From the NCBI GenBank assembly GCA_963779615.1, contig CAVZZA010000003.1, forward strand, positions 1,088,001 to 1,152,000: 64,000 nt of DNA, written 5' to 3'. Made by a program: the position numbers and the translations under genes. This stretch comes from an uncultured Nitrososphaeraceae archaeon. GTDB taxonomy: Archaea > Thermoproteota > Nitrososphaeria > Nitrososphaerales > Nitrososphaeraceae. The notes under the pieces were generated by a model that saw nothing but the letters and a program-made list of their open reading frames with translations, made no database searches and was not told the DNA's origin. Position 1 is the first letter of the stretch, and every line of letters starts with the position of its first letter. Shown here in pieces: positions 19,148 through 50,905 of the stretch.

Positions 19148-19151
19148 TAGG

Positions 19152-20400: not shown

Positions 20401-20472
20401 GTCAACAATCCGGTCAACAAACAACTTGTTTTGAGTATAAAAGAGGTGTGAAGTGCGGAATTTGTACTCGCG
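20401..20472 (-). repeat. Degenerate att copy (tRNA-Gly 3' end plus GTCAACAA arm)
   Basis: GGTGTGAAGTGCGGAATTTGTACTCGCG, 4 mismatches in 28 versus 50829-50856; preceded by two GTCAACAA. Confidence 0.75.
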
Positions 20473-20940
20473 TCCATCACTTTGATGGGACTTGATAAAA
20501 GTGGCACCTCTTCATCCAACAAGTGGGTCATCTTTTTCATGATGATGGAATTTAACTTTAACTTGTACTCATAGGACTTTAAAACCTGCTTCTATCCATG
20601 ATGAAATCGGATTACAGGCTTTAAGAAGGGACATGGTTGAGATAGGGGACAAAAGTATTAAAGGTTAGTCTTTTGCCCTGTCAATTATATCCATATGCAT
20701 ATGCGTTTATTGTCCTTTAATGCTGTTCTATTTTAAAAAGGGAATGAAGGAACCGGGCTTTTTAAGTTGGTTACTCAAGTCCTGGTCGCTTCTTTTTGAG
20801 TTTTTCTTTTCTTTAGCCGTCTTTTGGCTTCAGCATACATGCCATGCCATTATTGAGATATTGGCTTTTATGATGGCTTACAAATGCACTGTACTTTTGC
20901 TACCTACCCACTTTTATAGCGTACAAAGGACAGTATCAAC

Positions 20941-21369
20941 ATGAATCAAACAAATGCAACAGAAAGTGGAATGGAAAGAGGAAATGGAAACAGAAACCTT
21001 GTTCTTTTGTTTATATACAGGGCCCCAAAAAAGAATCACCAAGCGATTGTTGATCTGAACAATCGTGTAATTGGCACGTTTAAGGAATATGGCGTTCAGG
21101 GATTCGAGATGTTCCAGCTAGGGAACACCCAAGACATGATGGGATTTACCAACATAGCCAAAACCATCTCAGCTAATGGGGATGAGGAGGAAGTGTGGTT
21201 GGAAATCCAATCATATAGGGACCACAAACACCTGGAAGAGGTTGGGGCAAAGATGATGAGTGACGAAAAGATGAAAGCGGAGGGTCAACAGTTTATGAAC
21301 CTCATCACACCGGGCTCACGCTGCAGTTTTGGGGAATTCAACCGCCTCACTGAACTGGGCTTTATATAA
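20941..21369 (+). CDS. DUF1428-like dimeric alpha/beta-barrel protein
   Basis: 142-aa ORF; EEVWLEIQSYRDHKHLEEVGAKMMSD..FGEF pattern. Confidence 0.6.
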   Translation: MNQTNATESGMERGNGNRNLVLLFIYRAPKKNHQAIVDLNNRVIGTFKEYGVQGFEMFQLGNTQDMMGFTNIAKTISANGDEEEVWLEIQSYRDHKHLEEVGAKMMSDEKMKAEGQQFMNLITPGSRCSFGEFNRLTELGFI

Positions 21370-21470
21370 CTAGGGTATAGTCATCCCTTTTGCCTCTTCC
21401 TTTGTTATAAATCCCTGTATCCTTTTCCATGTCTGTCTCCTTTCACACGCCATTTCGGAAAAGTCCCTAT

Positions 21471-21586
21471 CCAACAATTCAACCCATTTGTCAACCATTC
21501 CAGGCATGAAATTAGGCAGTAAAAGTTTATTCAACAAAGAATTTGTTTTGAATGCCAAAAAGATGCAAAATGCGGAATTTGAACCC
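21471..21586 (-). repeat. Degenerate att copy (tRNA-Gly 3' end plus arm)
   Basis: GATGCAAAATGCGGAATTTGAACCC (4 mismatches in 25); upstream CAACAATTC..CATTTGTCAACCATT matches 50735-50765. Confidence 0.78.
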
Positions 21587-21649
21587 TAAATGTTGGGATA
21601 CAAAATGGGTATGTAAGCATAATTTTTAGACAAGTATCTCAAAAACAAT

Positions 21650-21880
21650 TACCCTTAATCAAAACCTAAAATGAGCCCACCAATCAATCCAAAGCCTATT
21701 TGCTTTCTTTCCCGTAACCATTACCAAACGAGGTAACCACCACCCATTTCTGCAATTGCTGCAACCGCAAATAACGTAAATGCGGATATAAAAAGTAAAA
21801 GTTTATTGTCATCACTATTTGCAGGAACTAATTCCAATTTTATCATCTTCTTCTTTTCTTGGTTAGTAACATATTATGAT
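21650..21880 (-). pseudogene. YnfA/UPF0060 membrane protein relic
   Basis: LFAVAAIAEMGGGYLVW*WLRERKQIGFGLIGGLIL. Confidence 0.7.
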
Positions 21881-21889
21881 GACCACGTT

Positions 21890-22448
21890 ACTAGCAATCA
21901 TTGTTCCCAAGATTGCATTTGCCCCCCTTTGTGGGCATCGTAATAGGCGTATACTCATTTGGAAAAATATCAATGGCCCACTTTAATCCCGATGTAACTT
22001 TGAGTTTCTTGATTACAGAACATAGTGAAAAGACAATTATTGCTGTACATATCTGCAGAGATAACAGGGGCGCTATTGGCAAGCCTGTTTGTAAAGTATG
22101 TCATATGAAATGAGGCTTTCCTTGGAGCCAAATCACCAAACTATGCCTATCCTCTGCCTTTGATATTTGGGGTAGAGGTATTGGCTTCCTCTTTACTGAT
22201 GACTGTAATTTTGGTTGTTGTATATACAAAGGGCCTGAGAGGTTTTGGCGGTATTGTTATTGGTACCATGGTTGGCTTGGACATATTTTTTTGGTATTTA
22301 TATCAGGAGCGTCAATGAACCCTGCCAGGTCCTTGGCCCCCGCCTTGTTATCAGGGGGAATGATACGAAACCTATGGCTGTATTGAACCGCCACATTTAT
22401 TGGAACATCCATAATCGCGACAATATTACGAAAAAGTTCAGCAAATAA
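21890..22448 (+). pseudogene. Aquaporin (MIP) relic, copy 2
   Basis: PFVGIVIGVYSFGKISMAHFNPDVT ... SGASMNPARSLAPAL; several frameshifts and stops; near-identical in parts to 39840-40229. Confidence 0.88.
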
Positions 22449-22486
22449 TTGCTTTGTGCATACATTTCAAAAAACATTGTCATTTT

Positions 22487-22610
22487 CTATCAAAAACAAC
22501 ATAAAAAACAACATATGTAGCAGTTGAAGATGTGTGGCAGCAGAGATAGCAGTTGGCAAAATATTGTAACACAGATACCAAAACTCATTATATTACAAAC
22601 CAACTGAATA
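22487..22610 (+). repeat. CAACA-repeat element, copy 2
   Basis: CTATCAAAAACAACATAAAAAACAACATATGTAGCAG; similarity to 42971-43090 continues for ~120 bp. Confidence 0.85.
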
Positions 22611-22998
22611 TCAACATCAGTTGCAAAAGTTAATGCAAGAAAAATTAAAATCTCAAACATAGAAACAGAAATGGACTTTGTGCGGAATTGGCGGTCTTGG
22701 CAGGACTTACAGGTATTGGACTTTTCAATATTTGAACAATATTGAGGTTGTTAGTAAGGCTATTGTAATACGCTATAATACTTTTGACAATATTTCAATA
22801 CCAACAGAAAAAATCAAATTGGGTCGGTAATGGAAGCATTGTTACTTAGCTGTTATGGCCGATCATTAGAAATTACTAATAGGTAACCACACTAAGAATC
22901 TAAAACTAAGTGTCGACCAATCATTACCTATACCCCACAAACGAAATGAACAAAATAATGTAAAAAGTATATACGAAACTTATTCCTTTATACAATTC

Positions 22999-23154
22999 AT
23001 GGCAAAAATGATCAGTTGTCCATGCGGTTGGACACTTATATCTCCCCAGGGAAACGAGGATATAAAAAAGCACATACAGATACATGCTAAGGATCATCAT
23101 CCTGGCCTGACCGAGACAGAGGATGAGGTTGAAAAGATGATCAAAACAGTCTGA
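22999..23154 (+). CDS. 51-aa DUF1059-like metal-binding protein (below the ORF-track cutoff)
   Basis: MAKMISCPCGWTLISPQGNEDIKKHIQIHAKDHHPGLTETEDEVEKMIKTV*. Confidence 0.75.
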   Translation: MAKMISCPCGWTLISPQGNEDIKKHIQIHAKDHHPGLTETEDEVEKMIKTV

Positions 23155-23221
23155 TGTTAAATCAAAGATGAACCTTGTTTGCTATCACGACTTCAAAAGG
23201 TAGTTGTTTAAAGTCAATGTC

Positions 23222-24160
23222 TTACATGGATTTTGACTCGGTTGTGATTTTTTGCCCTATTAAGTCGTCCATCCAGTTTTGTCTTTTCGGTTCTACGACT
23301 TCCTTGAATATAAAAAGGGAGCAAGATCTCACACCGTCGAACTTCAATATGTTTACGTAGGCCTCTTCAGGCTCCGCAAGAGTAAATGCAAAAAGATTGG
23401 CAAGCAAGATCTTCTCTGCCAGGGTTCGCACTGACCAAAGATTATCTGCGTAAGTTTCCCTTAACTGCTTGACAATCTTGTACCGCTTTGTTGCGTCAAC
23501 CGACAATTCCAATTCATAAAATATTAAGCCTTGTTGTTTTTGGCTATTTATTATTGCTCGGACTACTAACGTTTCTGAAACTAAGAGTTTTGTAATCCTG
23601 TATCTAACCATCCTGGGAGTAAGTGACAACGAGTCAGAAATCTCGTTGATACCTGACAATGCATCATATCGGAGTTTTTGAATAAGTTCCCAATCTAGAC
23701 TATCCGGAATTGAGACGGGTTCTTTTATTGAGTAACTTCCAAGCTTCCACTTGAATAATTCAAATCTATTGGCTATTTCAGCAGCCACTTGATCTATCTC
23801 CTCAGAGGAATTTCCAGTGATACTAACAGATACCACATTCCCTAAGTAGTCAACCGCTTCGACAATAAATGGGAGTCCATGGACATATTTTATGACTCCG
23901 TGTTTGGTGGCAATATTTAAGGCCTCAAATCTATAGGTGTTCATGTTTTTGAATTGAAAAAGCCCCAGGCGGGGCATTGCCTGATAGTACTTGATAAATC
24001 CGTCGTTTTCCATTTTCTTTACCCGTAATCGAACCGTTTTCTCATCCATTCCGAGCTTCCTCCCAATCTCTGACGGGCTAACCCGCCTGTCTATAAACGA
24101 GTCGTAATCTAAACCCTTGAATGCTATTTCACAGAAGATCCTTACATCTTTCGCATCCAT
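23222..24160 (-). CDS. Tandem (double) Lrp/AsnC-family regulator
   Basis: Two AsnC HTH units: SEIGRKLGMDEKTVRLRVKKM and LDWELIQKLRYDA..ISDSLSLTPRMVRYRITKL. Confidence 0.85.
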   Translation of the reverse strand: MDAKDVRIFCEIAFKGLDYDSFIDRRVSPSEIGRKLGMDEKTVRLRVKKMENDGFIKYYQAMPRLGLFQFKNMNTYRFEALNIATKHGVIKYVHGLPFIVEAVDYLGNVVSVSITGNSSEEIDQVAAEIANRFELFKWKLGSYSIKEPVSIPDSLDWELIQKLRYDALSGINEISDSLSLTPRMVRYRITKLLVSETLVVRAIINSQKQQGLIFYELELSVDATKRYKIVKQLRETYADNLWSVRTLAEKILLANLFAFTLAEPEEAYVNILKFDGVRSCSLFIFKEVVEPKRQNWMDDLIGQKITTESKSM

Positions 24161-24435
24161 CTAATTGTCCTGAACTTCCCGGCTAAAAAATTTAAAATAA
24201 AGATCATCATCTGCGTTTGACTCAACCATAAAAAAGATGGATGTGACACGCGCGATCTAATTTATGTAAAATACGGGTATAGAACTCCCGCCATTTATTT
24301 ATCATTCATGCGCCTGAACCTATATCATGATACGAGAAGTATTATCACCAACAACCATTGAAATGGAGAGGCACGAACAGGGAATAAGGCAATTAAGCAT
24401 CAGGAGAGGTTCAATGAATTCTAAAGGAGGTTTGG

Positions 24436-25500
24436 ATGCAAATGGTGGCAGATGAAGCAAAGTTGCAGAAATTTATTGAAAAGGCTGTAAACGAATGGGG
24501 AGCAACAGAAGGTGCTTTGATCACTTTTGTTGGCGACAGGCTGGGATTGTTTAAAGCTATGGCGGGAGCAGGTGAGATGACACCTCAAGAACTGGCAGAA
24601 AAGACAGGCACACACCCAAGAATGATTACAGAATGGCTATCAGGGCAAGCCGCTGGAGGTTACGTTATCTACAATAGCACTAAAAGAACATTCTCATTGC
24701 CTGAAGAGCATGCCTTGGCCCTGACTGACGAAAACAGCCCGGCATACGTAGCCGGATTTTACCAATCACTGGTAAGTCTTTTCAAAGACGTGGAAAAAAT
24801 TATTGAGGCATTCAAGACTGGAAAAGGCCTTGGATGGGGGGATCATCACCACTACTTGTTTGAAGGAACTGAAAGATTCTTCAGGCCTAATTACCTAGCC
24901 AATCTAACTAATAGCTGGATTCCAGCGCTCGAAGATGTCGAGTTCAAGCTAAAAAATAACGGAGCTAAAGTAGCAGACGTTGGATGCGGGCATGGCGCAT
25001 CAACAATCATGATGGCAAAAGCATATCCTAATTCAAACGTCATAGGATACGACTTCCATAAACCATCAATTGAGTGGGCTAAAAAACGGGCAGAAAAAGA
25101 GGGCTTGAAAAACCTAACATTTGAAGTGGCAAAGTCATCAGATTATCCTGGTGACGATTATGACTTGGTAACGTTCTTTGACTGCCTCCACGACATGGGT
25201 GATCCTGCAGGTGCTGCCAAACATGTGCTACAGACCTTAAAGAAAAAAAATGGCACCTGGATGGTAGTAGAACCATTTGCCAATGATCAATTAGAGGACA
25301 ATTTAAATCCTATTGGCAGGGTATTTTATTCGGTATCCTCTCTTGTATGCGTTCCTGCTTCTTTAAACGAGAATGGACCGGCACTGGGAGCTCAAGCAGG
25401 TGAACAGAGGACAACAGAAATAATGAAATTGGCAGGGTTTTCGAAGTTTCGTCGGGCTACTCAAACGCCTTTCAACTTGGTCTTAGAGGCACGACCTTAG
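24436..25500 (+). CDS. wHTH + class I SAM-dependent methyltransferase (Rv2258c-like)
   Basis: ELAEKTGTHPRMITEWL, ADVGCGHG, FFDCLHDMGDP, ALGAQAGE. Confidence 0.92.
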   Translation: MQMVADEAKLQKFIEKAVNEWGATEGALITFVGDRLGLFKAMAGAGEMTPQELAEKTGTHPRMITEWLSGQAAGGYVIYNSTKRTFSLPEEHALALTDENSPAYVAGFYQSLVSLFKDVEKIIEAFKTGKGLGWGDHHHYLFEGTERFFRPNYLANLTNSWIPALEDVEFKLKNNGAKVADVGCGHGASTIMMAKAYPNSNVIGYDFHKPSIEWAKKRAEKEGLKNLTFEVAKSSDYPGDDYDLVTFFDCLHDMGDPAGAAKHVLQTLKKKNGTWMVVEPFANDQLEDNLNPIGRVFYSVSSLVCVPASLNENGPALGAQAGEQRTTEIMKLAGFSKFRRATQTPFNLVLEARP

Positions 25501-25699
25501 TCCACATAACTGTCAAGGATTATTTCATGGTTTGAACCAGATATAATTTAAATCCTATGAGACGTTAATGACGACATACAATTGCAAAACTTATCCACAG
25601 TCTCATCATTAATTTTTAGACAAGGTTTATGATCATGAAGAAGAACTACTCAATAGTAATGTAGCGAAAATAACAGAGGAACAAAAATATTTGGGATGA

Positions 25700-26145
25700 A
25701 TTATTGCAGAGAGGCATCATCTAAGACGAATGTGCTATTGTATGCATCTGGCTTTGTATTATGTGCCAATAAACCACTTCCTCATATTGAGCCCGGTGTA
25801 ACATTTTTTGTGTTTTTTGAGCAAATAACTTGCTGCCAACCCCCCAGACCTTTGCAGTATCAGGAGACCGCCTACCTGCAATATCCTTAAAAGAAATTAT
25901 GGCTGCTGGTTGGTTTTGACAAATCAAATAGAAGAGTACCAGAATTCCTCGCACCATCACTAGAATCCTGAAAAAATGATAACCTGATGAGATTGATGTC
26001 CCTTGGCATTATGTGTAATAGATGATTGATTTTGTTGGTGCTGTTCTGCTAGGACGCTTTTATAATCCATTACTAGGAACCCTATGGCATATGTTAATGC
26101 GGTTGGTATAGCCACAAATAAGATAAATGCAAATGGTTTTGGCAT
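25700..26145 (-). pseudogene. Degraded secreted protein (HxAKGHQSHQV family)
   Basis: Signal peptide plus THNAKGHQSHQV; continues in shifted frames (TAKVWGVGSKLFAQK..GSGLLAHN). Confidence 0.5.
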
Positions 26146-26370
26146 AGTAAACGTGTTGTGAATCCATCTTTTTACAAATTGTAATACCAGTTAAAGGGTT
26201 TCTCTAAACATAATTAACTTAATAACTCGAACATGGATTTATGGTCAATATGAAAATATGAAAATTAATATGCATATTCAAAAACTGTGTTGACTCCAAT
26301 CGCGTTCATAATACTTTTGTGACTTTACAACAATTTCGTCAGAGAATTATCCACATGAAGTTAGAAAGAA

Positions 26371-26394
26371 GTGCGAAGTGCGGGATTTGAACCC
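26371..26394 (-). repeat. att core copy (tRNA-Gly 3' end)
   Basis: GTGCGAAGTGCGGGATTTGAACCC, 24/24 identical to 50830-50853; no arm retained. Confidence 0.88.
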
Positions 26395-26786
26395 TTAATT
26401 ATTGTCTTATCAATATGTTGGGTGTAGTTAATGATTGAACTAATATGTTCAATCAAAATACTTCTATCAAACAATGAACCTCTTAATATGCAATAAGTTA
26501 TAGTTATAGTATTTCCGAAATATCACATATTCGGGCAGGCTCATATCTTATCATGGATAGAAGCTCAAATAATGCGCCTTATTTCAAAATAAGCAAAATA
26601 AAGAGGATGAACAGATTTTGCTTTCTACATCAATTTTGTACTAAGCACGTAGTACACCATAATTATTTAACCAACAATACTGTACTATTGTCGTCATTAT
26701 CATCATGTTTCTCTAATAAACACAACCTTTGGAGTTTATTGAGAAAAAAGACTTCTTATATAATGATAAATGTACTCCTACATTTA

Positions 26787-28172
26787 ATGACAAGTAATAT
26801 ACCAGACAAATTCAACTTTAGCCAATTCATATTAGGAATATACATCATAATTATTTTTATACCATTAACAACAGATAATTTATTTCAATTGCCCAGTGCA
26901 CGAGCACAAAATGCTATAGTTGATGATCCTGATTTGGACAAAAAAGATGTTGCAAAGGCGTTGATTGACAAAGCGGAGGCATTAGAAAAGCTGGGTGACC
27001 ACACCGGAGCTTTAGAATCGTATGATAATGCCTCGGCCATAAACCCCACCAGCACAAAGGCGTTGACTGACAAAGGGAAGCTTCTGGAAAAGATGGGTGA
27101 CCACACCGGAGCTTTAGATTCCTACGGTCAAGCGTTGGTCATAAACCCCAATAGCACAAGGGCTTTGATAGAGAAAGGGGAGCTTCTGGAAAAGGTGGGT
27201 GACCACACCGGAGCTTTAGAATCGTATGATAAGGCCTTGGCCATAAACCCCACCAGCACAAGGGCTTTGATAGAGAAAGGGGAGCTTCTGGAAAAGATGG
27301 GTGACCACACCGGAGCTTTAGAATCCTACGGTCAAGCGCTGGCCAAAAACCCCACCAGCACAAGTGCGTTGACTGACAAAGGGGAGCTTCTGGAAAAGAT
27401 GGGTGACCACACCGGAGCTTTAGAATCCTACGGTCAAGCGCTGGCCATAAACCCCACCAGCACAAGGGCTTTGATAGAGAAAGGGGAGCTTTTGGAAAAG
27501 ATGGACAACAATACCGGAGCTTTAGAATCCTACGGTCAAGCGCTGGCCATAAACCCCACCAGCACAAAGGCGTTGACTGACAAAGGGCAGATTCTTGAAA
27601 AGGCGGGCAACAATACCGGAGCTTTAGAATCGTATGATAAGGCCTTGGCCATAAACCCCACCAGCACAAGGGCTTTGATAGAGAAAGGGGAGCTTTTGGA
27701 AAAGATGGGTGACCACACCGGAGCTTTAGAATCGTATGATAAGGCCTTGGCCATAAACCCCACCAGCACAAGGGCGTTGACTGACAAAGGGGAGCTTCTG
27801 GAAAAGGCGGGCAACAATACCGGAGCTTTAGAATCGTATGATAAGGCCTTGGCCATAAACCCCACCAGCACAAAGGCGTTGACTGACAAAGGGAGGATTC
27901 TGGAAAAGGCGGGCAACAATACCGGAGCTTTAGAATCGTATGATAATGCCTCGGCCATAAACCCCACCAGCACAAGGGCGTTGATAGAGAAAGGGGAGCT
28001 TCTGGAAAAGGTGGGCAACAATACCGGAGCTTTAGAATCGTATGATAATGCCTCGGCCATAAACCCCACCAGCACAAGGGCTTTGATAGAGAAAGGGGAG
28101 CTTCTGGAAAAGGTGGGCAACAATACCGGAGCTATACAAAATATTATAAAACCCATTCCAAACTCCCAATAA
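26787..28172 (+). CDS. Secreted TPR-repeat protein (11 near-identical 34-aa repeats)
   Basis: 102-bp tandem units ALxxKGxLLEKxGxxTGALESYxxALAINPTST; signal peptide ending ARA-Q; ORF track starts at 26553. Confidence 0.9.
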   Translation: MTSNIPDKFNFSQFILGIYIIIIFIPLTTDNLFQLPSARAQNAIVDDPDLDKKDVAKALIDKAEALEKLGDHTGALESYDNASAINPTSTKALTDKGKLLEKMGDHTGALDSYGQALVINPNSTRALIEKGELLEKVGDHTGALESYDKALAINPTSTRALIEKGELLEKMGDHTGALESYGQALAKNPTSTSALTDKGELLEKMGDHTGALESYGQALAINPTSTRALIEKGELLEKMDNNTGALESYGQALAINPTSTKALTDKGQILEKAGNNTGALESYDKALAINPTSTRALIEKGELLEKMGDHTGALESYDKALAINPTSTRALTDKGELLEKAGNNTGALESYDKALAINPTSTKALTDKGRILEKAGNNTGALESYDNASAINPTSTRALIEKGELLEKVGNNTGALESYDNASAINPTSTRALIEKGELLEKVGNNTGAIQNIIKPIPNSQ

Positions 28173-28464
28173 AGGCTTTGATTTACAAAGGTGAGGCAGT
28201 GGAGAATCTTGGTAACATACAAAGGTAATCAACCAAATACTGTAAGAGAGACAATAAAATCATTTAACTTGTAAGTCAACTGGACATTATTTTGGATATT
28301 TGTTTAGAATTCGCATTTCGTTATTGTCTGATGATATTTACCATTTTTGGTAAAATTATCATTATCATTTTATTCTAATAAACAGTATTCTGATTTTATC
28401 CATGCATGAGCAAATTCACCCAAAGTTTCAAATCCAGTATAATTTTTATTTATTATTTAATACA

Positions 28465-28539
28465 TAGATCGTTTCCCTTTAATTCAACTGTAAAACTTCC
28501 ATTTTAGTTGTTTTTGTGGATTTGTGTTTGCTCTTTCAT
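28465..28539 (-). pseudogene. 5' remnant of an integrase paralogous to 49584-50675
   Basis: MKEQTQIHK..KWK..TVELKGNDL versus MNQQIQIQKKPSEWKSVTVRLKESDI; DNA aligns with 50610-50675. Confidence 0.72.
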
Positions 28540-28558
28540 AACACATTCTATATCATTC

Positions 28559-28688
28559 ACCAAGCTTTAGCTGTTTCGTCAACAATTTACGAGCAGACCT
28601 AAACAATTTTATCTATTTGTCAATAATCCAGTCAACAAATCACCCATCTCAAATGCCAAAAGGTGCGAAGTGCGGGATTTGAACCTGC
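28559..28688 (-). repeat. att copy with integrase-proximal arm
   Basis: ACCAAGCTTTAGCTGTTTCGTCAACAATTTACGAGC identical to 50693-50728; GTCAACAAATCACCCAT..AAAAGGTGCGAAGTGCGGGATTTGAACC matches 50807-50852. Confidence 0.93.
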
Positions 28689-28928
28689 ATCTTGCACTCA
28701 CGGATTCATAATAACAATCCAATATATCACCTAAATATCAAATCATACAATACCTAATCAAATATGGAGCCTTTACAATTCAACAATTTTATTTTAAATC
28801 ATCAGGTAGATTTTACCAATGCTTTGTTTCCGTGTCTATGAAGTTTGATTATTTATATTCATTTTTTATTGCATCGCATGTAATGGGTACTTAATATTGT
28901 ATTTTTACCACCTATCTTCCGATCATAC

Positions 28929-31039: not shown

Positions 31040-31059
31040 ATAAGGAAAAAATTACTGAT

Positions 31060-42032: not shown

Positions 42033-42275
42033 TCGATAAATGTGAAGATTGACTCAAACCTTGCATTCACGCCCCACTTAAAATAGGAAAATTGCCACAT
42101 AGGGGCTTGTAATAAATTAACGTTGAATCATCCGGGTCGTTATATGCATGAAGTTAGTACACGCAATGTATTACTATCGCGACATTCATGCCATGAATGG
42201 TATAAAATCAAAATCAAAAAAAAAGACATGATGGACATGGAGAGAACAAAATTATCACTAATATTAAAAAACAAA

Positions 42276-42932
42276 ATGTCTTTAAATCAAAAGAAGTTTT
42301 TAGCCGAAGTTATTGGAACGTTCATTGTGGTTGTGCTGGCCACAGGCTCCGTGGTTGTTGACGCGAAAATGGGCGGAAGCCTCGGCCTGCCTTTTATTGC
42401 GTTTGCCCCGTTTGCGGGAGTTGTAGTGGGTGTATATTTGTTTGGGAGGATATCAATGGCCCACTTTAACCCCGCCGTGACATTGGGGTTTCTCATCACA
42501 AAACACATTTCAAAAAATATGTTTTTTCTTTATGTCGTTGCAGAGGTGACTGGGGCACTGCTGGCCAGCCTTTTTGTGAGTTCGGTCATCGGGTCCAGTG
42601 CAAACCTGGGTGCCAACTCACCAAACTACTCTTACCCATTGCCCTTGGTGTTCGGTGTCGAGGTGCTGGCATCGGCCCTGCTGATGGCTGTCATATTGGT
42701 GGTTGTGCGCAAAAAAGGCTTGAGGGGTTTTGGCGGGATGGCAGTTGGGGCAATGGTGGTCCTTGACATACTCTTTTTGGGCTTTATCTCGGGTGCCTCC
42801 ATGAATCCCGCGCGTTCCTTGGCCCCCGCCTTAATCTCTCATGTGATGGGAAGCCTGTGGCTGTATTGGTCTGCCACGTTTGTTGGAACATCAATAGTCG
42901 CAACAATATTTAGGAAAAAATTCAACAGATAG
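42276..42932 (+). CDS. Aquaporin (MIP family), intact copy 4
   Basis: Both NPA boxes (AHFNPAVT, SMNPARSLAP); ORF track starts at 42123. Confidence 0.93.
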   Translation: MSLNQKKFLAEVIGTFIVVVLATGSVVVDAKMGGSLGLPFIAFAPFAGVVVGVYLFGRISMAHFNPAVTLGFLITKHISKNMFFLYVVAEVTGALLASLFVSSVIGSSANLGANSPNYSYPLPLVFGVEVLASALLMAVILVVVRKKGLRGFGGMAVGAMVVLDILFLGFISGASMNPARSLAPALISHVMGSLWLYWSATFVGTSIVATIFRKKFNR

Positions 42933-42970
42933 TTATGCTTTAGAACACCGTTAAAAAATTATGTTGTTCT

Positions 42971-43105
42971 CTATCAAAAACAACATAAAAAACAACACAT
43001 GTAACAGTAAAAAATGCAGTAACAGGGATAGCGGTCAGGAAAAGGCTGTAACATGAATAGCAAAATCATTTGCTTATAAGCCATCTCAATAACAATGGGT
43101 GGCGT
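42971..43105 (+). repeat. CAACA-repeat element, copy 5 (upstream region of an HTH gene)
   Basis: CTATCAAAAACAACATAAAAAACAACACATGTAAC...TTATAAG (TATA-like)...ATGGGTGGCGTATG. Confidence 0.85.
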
Positions 43106-43669
43106 ATGCTACCAAATGAAAAGGACAAAGAAAATCATGTTATTGACTTGCTGAAAAAGGGTTACAAAACAAGGGAGATTGTAAAGCTGGCCCACGTTTC
43201 GAACACCACCGTCAAGAAGATAAGGGCGAAACTAACCGCTGAGGCTAAAGAGGAGCAGGAGCAAGGCGACCAAAGGAAAAAACCGTTGTCCGTTTCGTCA
43301 CAGGCATTCAACCTATTTGAAGAGGGCAAGTCCGTTGTCCAGGTCACCACTGGGCTTGATTTGACCACGGACCAGGCACTGAAAATACAATCCGACTACC
43401 TGGTATTGCGGAATATGGGACTGGCCTCGCGTATTCTGATGGAAAACCGAAAGGACTTGGGTGCATATTTGAAACTGTTTGATTTTCTGGACGGAAACAA
43501 AGTTAAGGTGAAGGACTTGAACCGTGCGGTTGATTTGACACAGAACATAGACAATATGAAGAAAGAGAAATCGCAACTGGAATACGACATAGACACGCTG
43601 ATTGACTTAAAAAAGTATTACGAGACAGAACTGGACGAAACCAAAAGAAAATACTACAAAAATCATTAA
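43106..43669 (+). CDS. HTH + coiled-coil protein
   Basis: VIDLLKKGYKTREIVKLAHVSNTTVKKIR; second HTH-like SQAFNLFEEGKSVVQV; C-terminal coiled coil. Confidence 0.8.
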   Translation: MLPNEKDKENHVIDLLKKGYKTREIVKLAHVSNTTVKKIRAKLTAEAKEEQEQGDQRKKPLSVSSQAFNLFEEGKSVVQVTTGLDLTTDQALKIQSDYLVLRNMGLASRILMENRKDLGAYLKLFDFLDGNKVKVKDLNRAVDLTQNIDNMKKEKSQLEYDIDTLIDLKKYYETELDETKRKYYKNH

Positions 43670-43818
43670 AGCCAAAACAGCGGTAAAATATTTTTCACGA
43701 GAATGTCTTTCTGTTGTGGTGGTGGTGGTGGTGGTGTTCATTGTTGGTAGGATAAATGCTATATCCGACACCACCTTTAACAGAAATATTTTTTATGTAA
43801 ACAAATCGTACTCTCTAA

Positions 43819-44703
43819 ATGAGTCTGGTGATTCGACCCATAGAGCAGGTTGATGCATAGACTTGCGGAAAGATTGGATACGAGGCGCACAAAACAATTT
43901 CCTCCGCTCATGGCTATCCCTCCGAGCAGCCCTCTGAAGAATTTGCAACAGGGCTCATCAGAAGGCTACTTGACAATCCAAATTCATGGGGCGTTTTGGC
44001 AGAGAAACAAGGCAAGACATTAGGAAGCGTATTCCTTCACAAGTTTCCGCCTTCGCCTGTGGCAGTGATAGGACCACTCACGGTCCATCCTTCAGCAGAG
44101 GGCGGCGGTGTGGGAAGGATGTTGATTGGTGCTGCCCTTTCTCAGGCCTGTAAACAGAACCATGACCAGGTTAGGTTGGTGCAATCGCCAAGCCACATTC
44201 GCTCCTTCGTTCTGTATACAAAGTCTGGCTTTGTCCTTCGTGAGCCATTACTTTTGATGCAAGGACGGCCCCTAAAAAGCGGCATCAATACAAGCAGCAG
44301 CAGCAGCAGCAATAATGTGCGCCCAGTTCGTGATGACGGCGATATTTCCGTGTGCAACGAGCTTTGCAAAACAGTGCATGGTTTTTCAAGGGACATGGAG
44401 TTGAGTCAGGCAAAGGACCAAGGCGTTGCCACCCTGATTGTACGAGATGGCGCCATCACAGGCTATGCGGCAGGCTTGGGCATATTCGGCCACGCAGTTG
44501 CAAAGTCAAACAACGACTTGAAGGCACTGATTGCCAACGCACCTGCAGTTCTTGGCCCAGGTTTCTTTGCACCTGCCCGAAACCGCGAGGTAGTTAACTG
44601 GCTGCTTCAAAACGGCTTTCAGATGGGCTGGCCTGCAAACCTTATGACCTTTGGTCCATACAAAGAACCACCGATGCCTTTTCTTCCGTCTTTGGCATAC
44701 TGA
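43819..44703 (+). pseudogene. GNAT acetyltransferase with in-frame TAG at codon 14
   Basis: ATG at 43819 (MSLVIRPIEQVDA*TCGKIGYEAH) in frame with ORF 43996; VHPSAEGGGVGRML acetyl-CoA motif. Confidence 0.8.
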
Positions 44704-44764
44704 ACATTCACGAATTATGGTTATGCAATTCGCAACCTTAGGCTGCATTGACGAAATCCCAAGT

Positions 44765-45080
44765 AAGTCTTGGCCATCGACGGATTTGGAGACTGACGAG
44801 TAATGAGCATAAAATGACTTTTTGAGGCTGCAGAACATGCACAAGTCCGCCACAATCCTAAAGGAGCACAAAGACCAGTTGGCCCCCTTCGTGAAATTGT
44901 TTGAGTTGCTAAAGAAAAACAACACCCAGGGTTAGGGACATCAGGTATGCGGTTGACAATGTAAATAAAATAAACTCCCTAATACAGCAAAAGGAATCCA
45001 TGAAAAAAGAGGTCGAGCCATAAAAGGGGAGAGGGACTATTTGCTGGACAACCTAGGCGACATCAAAAGAGCATGCTGTA
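44765..45080 (+). pseudogene. Degraded paralog of the C-terminal half of 43106-43669
   Basis: DFLRLQNMHKSATILKEHKDQLAPFVKLFELLKKNN..DIRYAVDNVNKIN versus DYLVLRNMGLASRILMENRKDLGAYLKLFDFLDGN..DLNRAVDLTQNID. Confidence 0.65.
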
Positions 45081-45175
45081 GAATATCCAACTTATTACTT
45101 CTTCTAAGAGGAGGTTTGAGCTATCTGTCTTTTATGAATTCTATAAATGATTTTTTTAATTGAAATGATTTACCC

Positions 45176-45520
45176 CTATTCCTTGAACTTTTGCCACAGT
45201 CTAACAACTTTTTCTCCAACTGGTTTTCGCTTTATGCTTAATGATAAGGAATTGTTTTTATAACTTATGCTTACCTCATGAACCCATCGAGTGTAAAAAG
45301 ACTCGTCCATCCCTTCTGCTCTCCTTATAATTTTTGTTTTCTTGATAATGCCAAGCTGATCCAGCCCAGCCACTTTTCTGTAAGTGGATGACAATGGCAT
45401 GTCCAAAGAGCTGGATATTTGCTGCATACTCAATTCTTTTCCATCCAGCAACTCCATTATTGCCAGGCTTGTTTCGTCGGAAAGAATAAGCAAAATATCC
45501 TTTGCGTATGAATTCGTCAA
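45176..45520 (-). CDS. Winged-helix transcriptional regulator
   Basis: LSMQQISSSLDMPLSSTYRKVAGL. Confidence 0.82.
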   Translation of the reverse strand: MTNSYAKDILLILSDETSLAIMELLDGKELSMQQISSSLDMPLSSTYRKVAGLDQLGIIKKTKIIRRAEGMDESFYTRWVHEVSISYKNNSLSLSIKRKPVGEKVVRLWQKFKE

Positions 45521-45789
45521 CTTTTAAGGACAGCTAAAATTACTAACACAAAGCCAGAAACTTCAAAAATCTCTTCACTAATTCCCCGATTAGTGTTATC
45601 TACAAAGCTGATGTCTAAATAGCTTAGAAAATCCCCCAGTAGTGTATCCCCAATGGTTATAAGAATGAATCCAAATGCCAGATAAAGCATTGGGATATAT
45701 TTGGTCTTTTTAAAAGCCTTGGCTGTAAGATAAACCAAAAGAGCTCCCAAAATAAGATGGATTGAAACTACTATAGGATAAATCTCCAT
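45517..45789 (-). CDS. Small three-TM membrane protein coupled to the wHTH gene
   Basis: Three hydrophobic helices, KAFKKTKYIPMLYLAFGF; 4-bp overlap with the wHTH ORF. Confidence 0.75.
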   Translation of the reverse strand: MEIYPIVVSIHLILGALLVYLTAKAFKKTKYIPMLYLAFGFILITIGDTLLGDFLSYLDISFVDNTNRGISEEIFEVSGFVLVILAVLKS

Positions 45790-45972
45790 CTTTGTATTAA
45801 GATGCTGGTTGGATTAAACATTTTCACTAAAACCATTGAAAAACCAAAATGATAACCCAACCCCCTTTAAGTCAAACAAAATATAAAAGATTACCAAATT
45901 AATGATTCCCATTTCCATTTCCTGAGAATAGGACTAAATTATTTATTGGCATAATTGAATAAATTAAATTAA

Positions 45973-46764
45973 ATGGCATTACCGAAAACTAGCCTATCAA
46001 ACACATTTTGCTTAATAATGGCGATTACCACATTCACAATTCTTTTGCAATCCATGACATCTGTAAATGATATTGCATTTGCACAAGTAAGCAACAACCA
46101 ACAGCCAAACATCAACGCGCAGAGTCTTTTCAACACCCAAGCAATGACATTGGGAAACAATGTGAAGAACCTTGTGATACTCATACCCAATGAGGGACAC
46201 CATGGCCCCAATGAAGCCAGTGAAGCCAGGTTCCTGGAACCGTCATTTGTCCCTGCAAATGCGGTGATAAACACTGGAACCACAGTGGCATGGTATAATG
46301 GTGATTTCGGTCACGAACGTACGGTAAACGTAAAAGACGCAACTGGCAGCTCAGTTGTATTTAGCACCGGGGCAATAATAGACAATCAGGCATCAAAAAC
46401 ATACACATTCAACACTCCCGGAACCTACAGTTATGAGGCAATTGGCGACGCGGGTTACATAATGAAGGGCACCATAACTGTCAAAAGCATACAATCCCCT
46501 GTAACCACACCCGCTGCTGCTGGTGGTGGAATAGACACAGTGGGGGTATTGATGGTTCCAACACAGGGCATAGACAAATACATGCAGGACATCAAAAATG
46601 CCGGTTTAACGGTCGACAGCGGGCATAGCTTCAAAGACCTAAGGGGAGGTCAGAGCGGAACAGGAGACGTGCAGACACTCTTGGTGTGGACCTCAGGCGG
46701 CAAGGATTTGAATACCGCGATTGCGCCCCTAAGCCAGCTATCGTTAACCTTACCATACAGTTAA
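45973..46764 (+). CDS. Secreted cupredoxin-fold protein lacking the type-1 Cu cysteine
   Basis: FVPANAVINTGTTVAWYNGD.GH..TV, TYTFNTPGTYSY...MKGTITV. Confidence 0.78.
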   Translation: MALPKTSLSNTFCLIMAITTFTILLQSMTSVNDIAFAQVSNNQQPNINAQSLFNTQAMTLGNNVKNLVILIPNEGHHGPNEASEARFLEPSFVPANAVINTGTTVAWYNGDFGHERTVNVKDATGSSVVFSTGAIIDNQASKTYTFNTPGTYSYEAIGDAGYIMKGTITVKSIQSPVTTPAAAGGGIDTVGVLMVPTQGIDKYMQDIKNAGLTVDSGHSFKDLRGGQSGTGDVQTLLVWTSGGKDLNTAIAPLSQLSLTLPYS

Positions 46765-47269
46765 TAGCGTCTTTTTTTATTTTTTAAATATTGTTGCAAG
46801 GTCATCATGAGTATCCGTAATTAATATTATATCGCAATCAAAGAGCAATTGAGGCAAAGCAAATTTTATGTATGTATATGCTTTAGTATTTTTCCCAATA
46901 CGTTCTCGTCCAACTGTCTGGTTATCCATCTTTTATAAACTCTATCACTGCATATCCTGGGTCGATTTTGTTTTCATTCAGAATTTCCAACAGTTTTAGT
47001 GGGTCCCTGTGACTGTAGACTTGCTGGTTCTTTACGGCAATGAACTTGTTTTTTGTGTTTTAGGCAAAGTTCGTCGCGTTTATCACTAAAGTACTGAAAA
47101 TCCCTGCCATACTCTTTTGGGGTTTCCATTTTCTCATCTTTGACAGATTTTTTCTTATCTACACCCATGAAACAGCTAATTATTAAAAAATACTTTTTGA
47201 TGCCAAAAGATGTTATTTGATACCAATATAAAACCACACAAAAGATGCAAAGCCAGTTGTTGTAATCAA

Positions 47270-47545
47270 ACTCCAATCGCACCAGTACCGAAGATGGGGC
47301 AGCCTAGGGAAACCCGGACTTGGAGGCACAATTAGGGGCTTGGTAGCCCATGGCATACAGGGGTTTGTCTACGAAAGGGCAAGGGCCGACTTGGGGATTC
47401 CAAACAGCGTTGACGTGATGGCCATGATTGCGATTAGAAAAAGATGGCCAAAGGAGAACCTCTCAATGAATGTGCAGGAAAATACCCAAATGGCAGAAAA
47501 CCATTGGGGGAAATAGTTAGGGGCCGCTTTACAGGAAAATAGAAT
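47270..47545 (+). pseudogene. Nitroreductase-family C-terminal relic
   Basis: Across frames GAA*..LEAQL.GLVAHGIQGF.YERARADLGIPNSVDVMAMIAIRKR.PKENL..PNGRKPLGEIV. Confidence 0.7.
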
Positions 47546-47640
47546 AAGATGTTGCAAACCAATGGTTTTTTACAGCCTGTCTTATGACGAAGACTTGGAC
47601 CCTTTTTTTATTCTATAAATCAACTTAATTATTTTACCAT

Positions 47641-49093
47641 TTAATCAGTTTCTTTGTTGCATAGGTCATATGCATTAAAGAACTCAAATGGGCGCCCTAA
47701 TGCTTCCTCGATTCCTTGCTCCAACGGTATGTCTTCCTTGATGCTGACGTTCTCCTCCAGCCTTAAGCACTTTCCGCATACTGGCATTATCTTCCCATAG
47801 ATTTGGAAAACATGGCCAAGCGCCTTGACTTTAATTCCCTCCTGGCTATACCAGTGCCTAACATATGGGTATTTTTTCACCAAGTATGATTCCGGTATCG
47901 TAAGGTCCACATCATACTGTTTCAACAGCCATTCTCCGGTTGGTGGGATGATTGACGACAGCCCTTCAAATTCTTGACCCAGTATGAACGATATTTTTCC
48001 TACGGTCTCAAAGAACTCCCGGCAATCGTCAGTTCCATGCAGTTTAAAGGGCCTGTAGGAAGCATTCCAGAGCAGCAATCACCTTGCCATTTGGATAGAC
48101 CTGTAGGGTGCAGCTGCGCTTACTTTCCAACCTAAATGACTTCACCTTGGCTTTGTTGCCCTCGCTTTTTACTATCCAGCCGTCTTCCCTGGTGAGAAAA
48201 TCATAAGTTTCATCAAATTCGCCCCCAATAATCTTGACATGAATTATTAACTTATGGAATGTAGGTGGACGTTGTGTAATCTCATTTACCAGCAGCTGAA
48301 TCACACTAACCTGCGGCACGTCTAGAGATTGCTGATGCTGTTGAATTGAATCAGTAGATTGTTTTTTTTATAAACCTCCCAATTTCTGTGGACAGAAAAT
48401 ATTCCTTGTATCTTCCCTGCTTGTATCCATCTAAATGAACTGAGTCTGTACTTATGACACTCAAATAGAACCTTTTTGGCATATCCTTCTGTATACCCTA
48501 GGTTAACTATGTCTTCCCGAGTAATGCCCCTGTTTTCTTTATGATGTATGTCATATGCCTTTATTGCTATTTTTCTAAGTTTGGCTGGTAGTTTTGTGTG
48601 TATGGCAGACTCCCATTCACTGATTGCGCCTTCTTCATCAGAGGCAAAGGCGCAATAGGAAGGAAGAGGAGGGGCAGTGATATTGGTGACCTCTCTGACC
48701 ATTGGAGTTACCTTTTTAGCCCTTGTTGCACTGAATGTGAAAAGACTTATCATTTTTGATGAAATGTGGTGCCGTATCACAAGGATTAGACATCTTCGAA
48801 GGATAATTATTGGCTATTTGGTGTTCTTTGATTGGATTTTCAAGGTCATCGTATAATTTATTATCTGGTTTTATCTTTTGCTTCTCAATATTTTTTATTT
48901 TTTGCTTGGGAACCCAGTAGAATGAATGGTTAGAGTTACCTTTTTTAAATTTTAAATTAGATGTACTCTCAAAGTATTGAGTCATTTTGGGTCGTCCCCT
49001 TGGGACAATGTCTAAGCAAGTTATTGAGTTCTTTAAAGTAGATGGAATGACAAATTCGTTATCTTTATAAATAAATTTTACATTAGTAGTCAT
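47641..49093 (-). CDS. Probable single frameshifted element core gene (wHTH + possible replication-initiator domain)
   Basis: Four overlapping/abutting minus-strand ORFs (48716-49093, 48322-48780, 48044-48319, 47641-48078); wHTH-like GITREDIVNLGYTEGYAKKVL; C-terminal QYDVD..QIYGK..LRLEE. Confidence 0.5.
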
Positions 49094-49096
49094 ATT

Positions 49097-49360
49097 CTAA
49101 TCTCCTATTCGATTTTCCAATCCCAATCCAGAAGGTGTCTTTGTTGCAGCCTTGTGATAATGGGAATTAGAATTTGGATATGACTCAATCTTCTTAACTG
49201 GTTGGTCGCCCGTTACTTTAGATTGAGTCACATTATTTTTTATATTGATAGAAGTTTTACAGATACTACAAGGGGCATAAAAAAGACTTTTTCCTTTGTA
49301 TGTCCACTCATTACCACATCTTTTACAATTTAAAATAAAGGATTCTCTACCTTCCCTCAT
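49097..49360 (-). CDS. Small Zn-ribbon protein
   Basis: CKRCGNEWTYKG...CSICKT. Confidence 0.78.
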   Translation of the reverse strand: MREGRESFILNCKRCGNEWTYKGKSLFYAPCSICKTSINIKNNVTQSKVTGDQPVKKIESYPNSNSHYHKAATKTPSGLGLENRIGD

Positions 49361-49583
49361 ATTATTATCATTTATAGTAGTAAGTATATAAAATTTATTG
49401 ATATTTACCTAATTATTTGTAATTATTATATTTACAATGCCAATATAAATCAATAATTACAAATAATTAAAATCATTGCATTTCGGCCATATCATAAACA
49501 GTCAAAAATTTCAAATTACAAAATCCCAATCAAAAATAACCTCATAAAATACTTGATAAAAATGCAAATATCCAATAAATTAA

Positions 49584-50675
49584 TTATAAATATTTTTGCC
49601 AAGCAATAATGTATTGCTCTGCCATTTTGTCAATTTCATAGGTCATGTAATGCTTTGCGCTAATGGTCTTTGCTCTGCCTGCCAAGACCTCTGCCCCCTG
49701 CTCCTTTAGCCCCGACCTACAAAGCATGTTATAATGAAACTTTCTTAAATCCATAAAAGAGACTTTACTATCTGTATGAGTTTTAATTATCGAGTGGGCG
49801 ATTTTACGTTGCTCATAGTCTGCATGTCCAAGTCCCCTAAAATCCCTCCAGCAATTGGTTGGCACAATTGAAAAATAGCTATGTTTTTGCCCCACGATTC
49901 TGTTTAAGACAATAACCGAGTGTCCATTCCTCTTATCCATAACATGCAAACTTTGGCAACCACAGCCTGACAAGTTGTCACAAATGGGAGCAACATGAGC
50001 ATAAGATATCTCTTCTCCCCGTAACCCTGAGTATAATGCGAACTTGATTAAGATTCCAAGTTCCCCATCAATTTTTAATATTTTGACCATCATCCTTTTT
50101 ATATAATTCTCGTCACTGAGCCAAACTCTATCATGTATCTTCATTTTTCTGTTTAGTTCATATCTTTCAATGATTTCCTGAATAAGCAACTTTAACTCTG
50201 GATTGTGAAACTTTCTATCGTAGTATTCTCCGAATCTTCTCATTGCATCACATATCCACGCCCTCTCGTGTCCAGACTCTCCTCGAATTATATCAGGGCT
50301 GGTAAAGAATATCTCCACATATCTTTCAAAATAACGCACCAAGTCTTTGGCGTGCTTTGGATATGCGTATCTTTTGGAGAGGTCCCTTAGCATATCCTCA
50401 GAGTTCACATTTCTGTAAAAGGTGGCATTAAACTCGCCAGTCAGCGGGTCCCTTATGCCTTTGTCTCTGATTCTTTTTATCAGCCTCTCAACCTGTTCGT
50501 TATTCTGATGTGCAGGATAGTCGCCCTTTATCCACGCATGAATAAATTCGCTGAAGGTTTCAAAACCGTTTAACTTTAGTTTACTGTTTAGAATGGCTAT
50601 ATCACTCTCCTTCAACCGGACCGTAACGCTTTTCCATTCAGACGGTTTTTTCTGGATTTGTATTTGCTGATTCAT
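49584..50675 (-). CDS. Tyrosine recombinase/integrase with N-terminal RHH-like domain
   Basis: ALYSGLRGEE (R), DLRKFHY, LAGRA, SAKHY (Y nucleophile); adjacent to the tRNA. Confidence 0.9.
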   Translation of the reverse strand: MNQQIQIQKKPSEWKSVTVRLKESDIAILNSKLKLNGFETFSEFIHAWIKGDYPAHQNNEQVERLIKRIRDKGIRDPLTGEFNATFYRNVNSEDMLRDLSKRYAYPKHAKDLVRYFERYVEIFFTSPDIIRGESGHERAWICDAMRRFGEYYDRKFHNPELKLLIQEIIERYELNRKMKIHDRVWLSDENYIKRMMVKILKIDGELGILIKFALYSGLRGEEISYAHVAPICDNLSGCGCQSLHVMDKRNGHSVIVLNRIVGQKHSYFSIVPTNCWRDFRGLGHADYEQRKIAHSIIKTHTDSKVSFMDLRKFHYNMLCRSGLKEQGAEVLAGRAKTISAKHYMTYEIDKMAEQYIIAWQKYL

Positions 50676-50709
50676 AATTTACTCTATAATCTACCAAGCT
50701 TTAGCTGTT

Positions 50710-50816
50710 TCGTCAACAATTTACGAGCCAATGTCAACAATTCGGCCTCATTTGTCAACCATTTCCTGCGTGTATTCTGTGTGGGTCAACAAACTGGTCA
50801 ACAAATCACCCATTTC
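50710..50816. promoter_or_regulatory. Five GTCAAC(AA) direct repeats between the integrase and tRNA (putative arm sites)
   Basis: GTCAAC at about 50712, 50733, 50754, 50795 and 50807; the same motif recurs at four of the five att copies. Confidence 0.6.
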
Positions 50817-50830
50817 AAGTGCCCAAAAGG

Positions 50831-50905
50831 TGCGAAGTGCGGGATTTGAACCCGCGATCCCGAGCTTGGGAAGCTCGTACCTTAACCAGGCTGGGCCAAC
50901 CTCGC
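50831..50905 (-). tRNA. tRNA-Gly(CCC)
   Basis: GCGAGGTTGGCCCAGCCTGGTTAAGGTACGAGCTTCCCAAGCTCGGGATCGCGGGTTCAAATCCCGCACTTCGCA; acceptor GCGAGGT/ACTTCGC, anticodon stem CGAGC/GCTCG around CCC, T-arm GCGGG-TTCAAAT-CCCGC. Confidence 0.96.

Follow-up and report, generated by a model that had tools for sequence, protein, structure and literature searches.

Probable tandem accretion of mobile elements at the 3' end of a tRNA-Gly(CCC) gene in a Nitrososphaeraceae archaeon

The tRNA-Gly(CCC) gene, its displaced 3' ends, and the adjoining integrase

We examined a stretch of 64,000 nt (G000:C3:1088001-1152000, hereafter the window) from the genome of an uncultured Nitrososphaeraceae archaeon (GCA_963779615.1, here G000; 3.17 Mb in five contigs, 36% G+C), where the 3' end of an intact tRNA-Gly(CCC) gene recurs five times beside the gene itself, next to a gene for a tyrosine integrase. 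This is the sole tRNA gene that ARAGORN calls within the window. On the plus strand its 3' end is read first, and lower coordinates lie downstream of it. The five displaced copies are found within ~30.5 kb, all on the 3' side and all in the orientation of the tRNA (Table 1). An earlier note, made from the letters of this DNA alone, had listed five copies in the same orientation with 27/27, 26/27, 24/24, 21/25, and 24/28 matches, and alignment reproduced every one of these values. The segment lengths it gave between the cores, 14.8, 7.4, 2.3, 4.8, and 1.1 kb, are also correct. We refer to these segments as E1, which adjoins the tRNA, to E5, the outermost.

The bounds of each copy come from its local alignment to 50690-50862. 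When the 27-mer of the tRNA 3' end was searched for with at most 3 mismatches, 4 matches were returned (the displaced ones at 36046, 28664, and 26372), compared to an expectation of 0.00 from 100 shuffles. We also derived a profile from three sequences, the tRNA copy and the two strongest of the displaced ones, and searched the entire 3.17-Mb genome with it. Those three match it by construction, and it recovered the weaker copies genome-wide with E values of 1e-9 (20397-20474), 2e-8 (26314-26394), and 2e-4 (21523-21586). Over the 22-nt core, the three innermost copies show no mismatch and the two outermost show 3 and 4. Among 24 tRNAs tested in G000, tRNA-Gly(CCC) has the most extra 3'-end copies.

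The attachment (att) copies extend beyond the tRNA. On the low-coordinate side of all five lies DNA with homology to the 155 nt that separate the tRNA from the integrase start; we call this DNA the integrase-side arm. Four copies had been credited with such an arm in the earlier note, but alignment places it at 5/5. The octamer GTCAACAA, repeated within the arm, occurs 14 times in the window versus 3.3 expected, a number reached in 0/100 shuffles, and 9/14 occurrences are on the plus strand within ~135 nt to the left of an att core. These octamers are likely arm-type binding sites. The outermost copy also has an integrase-side arm on its left, so at least six elements are implied, and the earlier estimate of at least five integrations was right about repetition but too low as a count. 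The far end of a sixth, older element was not found to the left of copy 5.

The integrase of E1 is the sole copy of its family in G000 (tblastn, E<1e-3); other, unrelated integrase-like genes adjoin other tRNAs in this genome. It has 170 homologues at E<=1e-5, the named ones being integrases of Nitrosocosmicus or Nitrososphaeraceae, which suggests Candidatus Nitrosocosmicus as the source of the window, and in an alignment with 19 homologues it keeps 57/57 invariant positions, including R219, K264, R311, R334, H342, and Y343. The gene is not split by integration: the att core lies 155 nt upstream of its start, outside the open reading frame (ORF), and the open frame of 364 amino acids ends just upstream of the ATG. 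Since the gene is whole and begins 155 nt from the core, its arrangement is the non-suicidal one of type II, which the archaeal integrase classification describes as non-split and pNOB8-like (PMC8371274), though its domain family is that of SSV1. It does not match the sequence family of the pNOB8 integrase itself (PF00589 with a SAM-like N domain). Neither PF00589 nor PF02899 matched the protein, PF16795 being the only hit at E<=0.01, and a whole-genome PF00589 search matched three other loci and not the gene at 49584-50675.

A second trace of an integrase lies to the left of copy 2, where the similarity to the tRNA-proximal region continues into the first ~50 integrase codons. Here the DNA at 28395-28688 aligns to 50527-50855 with 70% identity over 333 columns (E 6e-33), which bears out the earlier claim that one copy keeps the start of an older integrase. 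No other integrase remnant was found by tblastn in the window. The older segments had been said to lack their integrase genes, and this holds: E2, E4, and E5 have no integrase similarity and E3 retains a stub of 45 amino acids.

Directly downstream of the integrase gene is an ORF of 87 amino acids (49097-49360, minus strand) with relatives beside other tRNA-linked integrases, such as C4:212369-212563 (near the integrase at C4:213194 and a tRNA-Arg); a further relative lies at C3:274085. This ORF may encode a recombination directionality factor.

The same tRNA in congeners and related sites elsewhere in the genome

The tRNA and its right flank (genes for a PUA-domain protein, Trm56, PurP, a thermosome, and others) were found in 18/18 congeners searched, with 65-81% DNA identity. 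On the left, nothing of the 33 kb recurs except one GNAT gene, in G010. A displaced core was present in 6/10 congener loci compared, and the other four had only 0.9-4.4 kb of contig on that side. Integrase homologues adjoin the same tRNA in G002 (intact, 65%), G012 (broken into three pieces), G007, and G009, and the G002 element is 18.3 kb long and bounded by 31/31 repeats. When the genus was scanned for the 22-nt core with <=1 mismatch, 26/34 genomes including G000 had at least two copies, while the reversed pattern, our control, gave 0 in every genome. Three of these genomes (G038, G043, and G042) have seven perfect cores each, in one orientation and within 14-26 kb, the last of them part of tRNA-Gly(CCC). 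From these arrays and core counts, the hot spot belongs to the genus as a whole, and its arrays differ between species.

Some of the congener arrays contain units of ~1.3 kb between perfect cores, each with one secreted alpha/beta-hydrolase gene, at loci L038/L039 (G038), L040 (G043), L042 (G042), and L041 (G004). The units are 69-91% identical to each other, and 4/5 ORFs tested match PF00561. At L040 (G043:C2), a C-terminal integrase fragment (...LAKSISAKHY...) reads in frame through the tRNA-Gly core at ~1794-1916 and ~9348-9476, which could represent either a split, SSV-type arrangement with the phage-type site (attP) inside the gene or a deletion that ended at the core.

In G000, the profile detected four more copies away from the tRNA, at C1:184839-184921 (80 bits), C5:186551-186620 (45 bits), C5:869510-869586, and C5:234457-234504. 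The first carries both an integrase-side and a distal arm and looks like an attP or a junction of two tandem elements; the second shares >130 nt of arm with it. No integrase was found near any of the four in G000. Relocation by rearrangement would be the simplest reading of these copies.

The distal arm of E1, which we call the module, belongs to a family with 13 copies of ~180-400 nt in G000, whose tRNA-Glu-like start runs, at the T-loop, into the 3' ends of various tRNAs. In the window, members lie to the right of both copy 1 and copy 5. Over its first ~50 nt, the C1 copy agrees at 43/50 positions with the tRNA-Glu(CUC) gene of G000, a stretch that reaches back from the T-loop to the D-loop, and the window copy is ~85% identical to the C1 copy. 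The module junction is thus a chimeric pseudo-tRNA, with a Glu-like body and a Gly(CCC) 3' end joined within the shared motif GGGATTTGAACCC. At C3:375.0-375.2 kb, the module abuts a 44-45-nt tRNA-Glu 3' fragment, 6.4 kb downstream of an intact tRNA-Glu gene, which makes it an ordinary island of the anticodon-loop type. The module is, we infer, the distal attP arm of a family whose original target was tRNA-Glu and which acquired a Gly-type integration half through exchange in the T-loop. The crossover made by the Gly-type integrase would accordingly fall within or next to the T-loop.

Within the module, a small ORF that reads toward the core gives a conserved peptide (...SYEYKLKS.IKKK..DKELPLLSSLF...), for which Pfam gave no match. 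This peptide may or may not be the N-terminal part of a split integrase. When we looked for longer proteins that include the module ORF, a single PF16795 integrase (P0121) came up; it matches only the tRNA-Glu-derived translation and not the conserved peptide. Rfam searches of the module and the att copies returned no family beyond tRNA itself. We did not rely on the calls that ARAGORN made in intron mode, whose introns would be 300-650 nt long; the one at C3:374838-375215 consists of the module and the tRNA-Glu 3' fragment.

Repeated integration weighed against other readings

In this region, mobile elements have very probably been stacked in tandem at the 3' end of tRNA-Gly(CCC) by repeated site-specific integration (accretion), and the older ones have since decayed to remnants. 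An incoming element would have held, in its attP, a copy of the last ~25 nt of the tRNA (the acceptor 3' strand and T-arm) adjoining a tyrosine integrase gene of the Nitrososphaeraceae PF16795 family. A crossover within or close to the T-arm would insert the element behind the tRNA body and ahead of the old 3' end. The tRNA would then be completed by the 3'-end copy that the element brought along, joined to its integrase-side arm, and the old 3' end would move outward, still joined to the integrase-side arm of the previous element. At least six such rounds would lead to the present order, with the oldest element on the left and the newest beside the tRNA. Older elements would have lost their integrase and most backbone genes by deletion, keeping some cargo.

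All five displaced copies are arranged exactly as this scheme predicts. The integrase stub to the left of copy 2 occupies the position expected if integrations are stacked. Core decay that grows outward fits an age that increases outward; a core escapes selection on the tRNA only once it has been displaced. The earlier note had proposed that integration into a re-formed tRNA displaces older elements, and the geometry of arms and cores, the single integrase remnant, the unrelated segments, the core decay, and the differing arrays of congeners all uphold it. The order of events, catalysis by the PF16795 integrase family, and the position of the crossover are what we infer beyond these features. 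Of the segments, E1 alone (36.0-50.9 kb, cores 27/27) seems capable of excision at present.

Several results weigh against this account. The integrase barely exceeds the Pfam cut-off for PF16795 (28 versus 27 bits), and a sequence search of solved structures returned nothing below E 0.38. The four copies away from the tRNA need later rearrangement or some other form of spreading. The earlier note had named fragments scattered away from this tRNA as a finding that would speak against it; such loci do exist, but five of the ~9 displaced copies lie within 1% of the genome, all in direct orientation and on the 3' side of the tRNA. Comparison with relatives, which it had also suggested, turned up different arrays at the same tRNA, but an empty site or ancestral attB flank was definable in none, the left flank being unconserved in any relative. 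Of the genes to the left of the array, that for the topoisomerase at 57-2402 is >300 kb away from the tRNA in both single-contig genomes examined, and the asparaginase gene at 8017-8982 was not found in five relatives. In 3/4 relatives examined (G038, G042, and G004), the arrays contain no integrase homologue at E<1e-3. Finally, homologous hydrolase cassettes stand at different ranks in G038, G043, and G042, so the order of segments may be reshuffled and not simply chronological.

Four public metagenome runs contained 5-17% of the sampled words, all as short, low-depth contigs, and over 33000-52500 these contigs showed no joint between att copies and no circle junction, a result that, from such short pieces, speaks neither for nor against excision. 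The suggestion of the earlier note that the surviving integrase might still excise or reshuffle segments gains no support from them. They did show one unrelated skip of 2.75 kb and loose ends at 50831-50843, which belong to tRNAs of other organisms or to a different occupant. One contig, from run X2, matches the tRNA from 50831 rightward and has on its left a different, AT-rich arm resembling the GTCAAC arm, which suggests that in a related population something else occupies this site.

It is possible, though we consider it unlikely, that the array is instead composite or reshuffled. It would then not have grown element by element in this lineage: blocks of several att-bounded segments could have arrived together, through accretion and then joint excision and transfer, or recombination between att copies could have reordered, deleted, or exported segments, in which case position would not reflect time. 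An att copy with both arms lies elsewhere in the genome (C1:184.8 kb), the arms to the right of copies 1 and 5 are of one module family, and the chimeric Glu/Gly pseudo-tRNA points to an exchange of att halves. The ranks of the hydrolase cassettes also favor such reshuffling, as does G043, where the sole intact integrase adjoins the fifth core and two integrase-less segments lie closer to the tRNA. However, core decay in the window grows with distance from the tRNA, and all five copies are direct with the arm on the expected side; the lack of joints between att copies in the reads is further, weak evidence.

It is tempting to go further and regard tRNA-Gly(CCC) as a standing platform for gene capture, where short cassettes that lack an integrase and lie between perfect 22-nt cores would be inserted, excised, and put in new order by PF16795 integrases, resident or acting in trans. 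The integrase-free arrays of 1.3-kb hydrolase cassettes, their differing ranks, and the att halves swapped between tRNA-Glu-type and tRNA-Gly-type sites fit this idea, which we hold only tentatively and give a small chance of being right. If it is, archaea would possess a functional counterpart of the integron that is based on a tRNA.

Tandem duplication of the tRNA 3' region on the spot, or unequal crossing-over there, would need no mobile elements but is very improbable as the source of the copies. The paralogous ~1.3-kb hydrolase units that repeat between perfect cores in relatives could stem from unequal crossing-over. However, self-comparison of the window found no sequence common to its five segments except the att region and the module, which already contradicts this explanation here, as the segments differ in gene content. 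Their lengths vary from 1.1 to 14.8 kb, and the integrase and its stub are where stacked integrations predict them. Chance matches or an assembly artifact can be practically dismissed: GGGATTTGAACCC is a T-arm motif present in several tRNAs of G000, but the matches reach the acceptor strand and 33-105 nt of non-tRNA arm, 0/100 shuffles gave any match, the repeats are 60-170 nt long and inside a contig of 1.2 Mb, independent metagenome contigs agree over 35915-36069 (0 differences) and 50693-50875 (1 base difference and one 1-nt gap), and the same pattern occurs in 25/33 other genomes scanned.

Known systems and the contents of the segments

The mechanism favored here, repeated integration at one tRNA gene, is established biology, and the locus is an archaeal instance of a known tandem-island or "gene capture" pattern. 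The novelty implied by the earlier note was therefore overstated, as tandem arrays at tRNA or transfer-messenger RNA (tmRNA) genes, with integrase-less members, are already in print (PMC3146451, PMC4383910, PMC6563490). The closest described case is that of the ssrA (tmRNA) island arrays of Dehalococcoides. As McMurdie et al. (2011, PMC3146451) describe them, a single small-RNA gene is re-formed at each integration, insertion is in the T-loop region, and a dozen or more direct repeats of the ssrA 3' end lie downstream. The islands are strain-specific, and the array is a genus-wide region of high plasticity. About half of the islands lack genes for integration and have been interpreted as cis-mobilisable elements that accretion brought together, a structure (att-bounded and integrase-less) with which E2-E5 appear consistent. 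In contrast to the system here, with its archaeal PF16795 tyrosine integrase 155 nt from the core and its tRNA target, that bacterial system is described with a CcrB-like serine recombinase whose gene overlaps attL.

Closer in host, integrated elements of Thaumarchaeota have tRNA genes as their main targets, short direct repeats, and host-like cargo, and those with tyrosine recombinases form arrays by re-use of a site (Krupovic et al. 2019, PMC6563490). E1-E5 match the "cryptic integrated elements" described there from the same phylum. The tandem cases in that description are pairs, whereas stacks of five to seven occur here and in congeners. Its main text, as distinct from its supplements, does not name Nitrosocosmicus. 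A 2026 paper mentions integrase-flanked islands in Nitrosocosmicus genomes, but the word tRNA does not appear in its text (PMC13245735), and our literature search found no description of a tRNA-Gly array in Nitrosocosmicus.

The locus has the signature by which Islander and TIGER recognize a tRNA-gene (tDNA) island: the tDNA is intact, a fragment of its 3' end lies displaced in the same orientation, and the island contains an integrase (Hudson et al. 2015, PMC4383910). Here we find direct copies of the 3' fragment, a tyrosine integrase beside the tRNA, and a variable side opposite a conserved flank. Islander, as described, also includes a class whose crossover falls in the T-stem region, and it counted 125 arrays of at least two and 4 of at least three among 3919 islands, each member needing its own integrase (PMC4383910). 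By this strict rule the locus would be a single island with four extra fragments, as only E1 has an integrase.

In Sulfolobus, as She et al. reportedly described in work from 2001, 2002, and 2004, an integrase inserts elements at tRNA genes, and the elements then lose their mobility, which leaves their genes fixed in the chromosome. In that type of gene capture, an SSV-type integrase gene is said to be split on integration; the integrase gene here is whole, though its catalytic domain matches the SSV1-type Pfam family.

The earlier note had likened the array to an integron or a time record of the kind kept by clustered regularly interspaced short palindromic repeats (CRISPR), which holds as an analogy only. 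Like a mobile integron, the locus has one integrase by the primary site and a row of segments divided by copies of that site, the newest beside the integrase. However, the integrase is of PF16795 and not IntI, and the window lacks an IntI-type integrase, attC hairpins, a common promoter, and promoter-less single-gene cassettes. The segments here are whole decayed elements of 1-15 kb. A CRISPR array has short, regular repeats and spacers of 25-50 nt, whereas here the repeats are tRNA 3' ends and are spaced 1.1-14.8 kb apart.

The segments are multi-gene, with genes on both strands (Table 1). No replication, virion, or conjugation genes were recognized among the element genes. In E1, five small ORFs at 47641-49360 adjoin the integrase, and most have no relatives in G000 or in the congeners' tRNA-Gly loci compared. 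The G+C fraction over 37-45 kb is 0.42-0.49, versus 0.36 for the contigs. The locus shows the gain of accessory genes at one defined site in a soil ammonia-oxidizing archaeon, among them those for a copper/heavy-metal ATPase with an ArsR regulator, an ArsC-like phosphatase, a MIP channel, and surface-type repeat proteins. The hot spot is also a convenient marker of strain-level variation, and a natural landing site with its matching integrase could be tried for genetic tools, of which this group has none.

Table 1. Features of the tRNA-Gly(CCC) locus (window coordinates unless a contig is named)
Feature	Coordinates	Strand	Remarks
tRNA-Gly(CCC), intact	50829-50905	-	ARAGORN and Rfam tRNA (58.3 bits, full length); alternative left bound 50831
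Attachment core	50829-50857		Part of tRNA-Gly(CCC) 3' end
Integrase-side arm of newest element E1	50676-50828	+	Four exact GTCAACAA repeats and one GTCAACCA
Intact tyrosine integrase of E1	49584-50675	-	363 amino acids; PF16795, SSV1-type catalytic domain
Displaced att copy 1	36013-36073	+	33-nt arm of older element E2 and core; 36044-36070 is 27/27 vs 50829-50855
Displaced att copy 2	28559-28691	+	~105-nt arm, starting with a 36/36 block, and core 26/27 (from 28662)
Displaced att copy 3	26328-26394	+	Perfect 24-nt core (24/24 from 26371) and degenerate arm of ~43 nt
Displaced att copy 4	21472-21586	+	~90-nt arm and core with 4 mismatches in 25 (21/25 from 21562)
Displaced att copy 5, outermost	20400-20475	+	~45-nt arm with two GTCAACAA repeats and core with 4 mismatches in 28 (24/28 from 20445)
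Remnant of E3 integrase start	28385-28516	-	Amino acids 9-53; tblastn 41%, E 0.002
Distal arm of E1 (module)	36066-36249	+	Chimeric pseudo-tRNA start, then conserved small ORF remnant on - strand
Module copies elsewhere include	C1:184667-184847, C5:234287-234466, C5:225250-225427, C3:430917-431095, C5:866624-866804, C3:375021-375191		
Element E1	36074-50675		~14.8 kb between cores; integrase, unique small ORFs, cargo
E1 ArsR/SmtB regulator	36332-36706		Pfam/NCBIfam
E1 heavy-metal P1B ATPase	36880-38922		Copper subfamily model above cut-off
E1 LMW-PTP/ArsC-like phosphatase	39130-39579		Below cut-off
E1 MIP channel	42123-42932		Pfam/NCBIfam
E1 HTH protein	43070-43669		Pfam/NCBIfam
E1 GNAT	43996-44703		Pfam/NCBIfam
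E1 HTH protein, second	45176-45520		Pfam/NCBIfam
E1 DUF7521	45517-45789		Pfam/NCBIfam
E1 cupredoxin-like protein	45973-46764		Pfam/NCBIfam
Element remnant E2	28692-36012		7.4 kb, without integrase
E2 DUF6766	28929-29300		Pfam
E2 phospholipase-D-like	29441-31039		Pfam
E2 cytidylyltransferase-like	31060-31722	-	Pfam
E2 ORF of 194 amino acids, multi-copy	32724-33308	-	Paralogy
E2 NHL beta-propeller	34006-35565		Pfam
Element remnant E3	26395-28558		2.3 kb; TPR-repeat protein 26553-28172 (Pfam) and integrase stub (45 amino acids)
Element remnant E4	21587-26327		4.8 kb
E4 AsnC-type HTH protein	23222-24160	-	Pfam
E4 wHTH-methyltransferase	24436-25500		Pfam
Element remnant E5	20476-21471		1.1 kb
E5 DUF1428 protein	20941-21369		Pfam
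E5 module remnant	20493-20601		Similarity reaches ~20773

A few further observations concern repeats and single genes. In E3, the TPR gene contains, at 26953-28139, tandem units of 102 nt that are 84-89% identical in DNA, which would indicate a recent expansion of the internal repeat. To the left of the array, in the non-syntenic region, there is a fragment of a DDE transposase (PF13737; 15994-16329, minus strand). A ~130-nt repeat at 19151-19283 could be a miniature transposable element: >20 copies, 72-85% identical, are spread over four of the five contigs. On the other side of the tRNA, a tandem repeat with a 24-nt period (~53087-53140) lies inside the gene for an HTH protein (52895-53443) and recurs as longer arrays in G000 (C5:530195-530440) and in relatives (G012:C1:2205799-2205914). 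Lastly, two loci from other genomes, L030 (G031:C260) and L031 (G033:C158), contain at ~1225-1320 a tRNA-Glu(UUC) gene that ARAGORN missed; it has a 20-nt insertion in the D-loop region that is probably a non-canonical intron.

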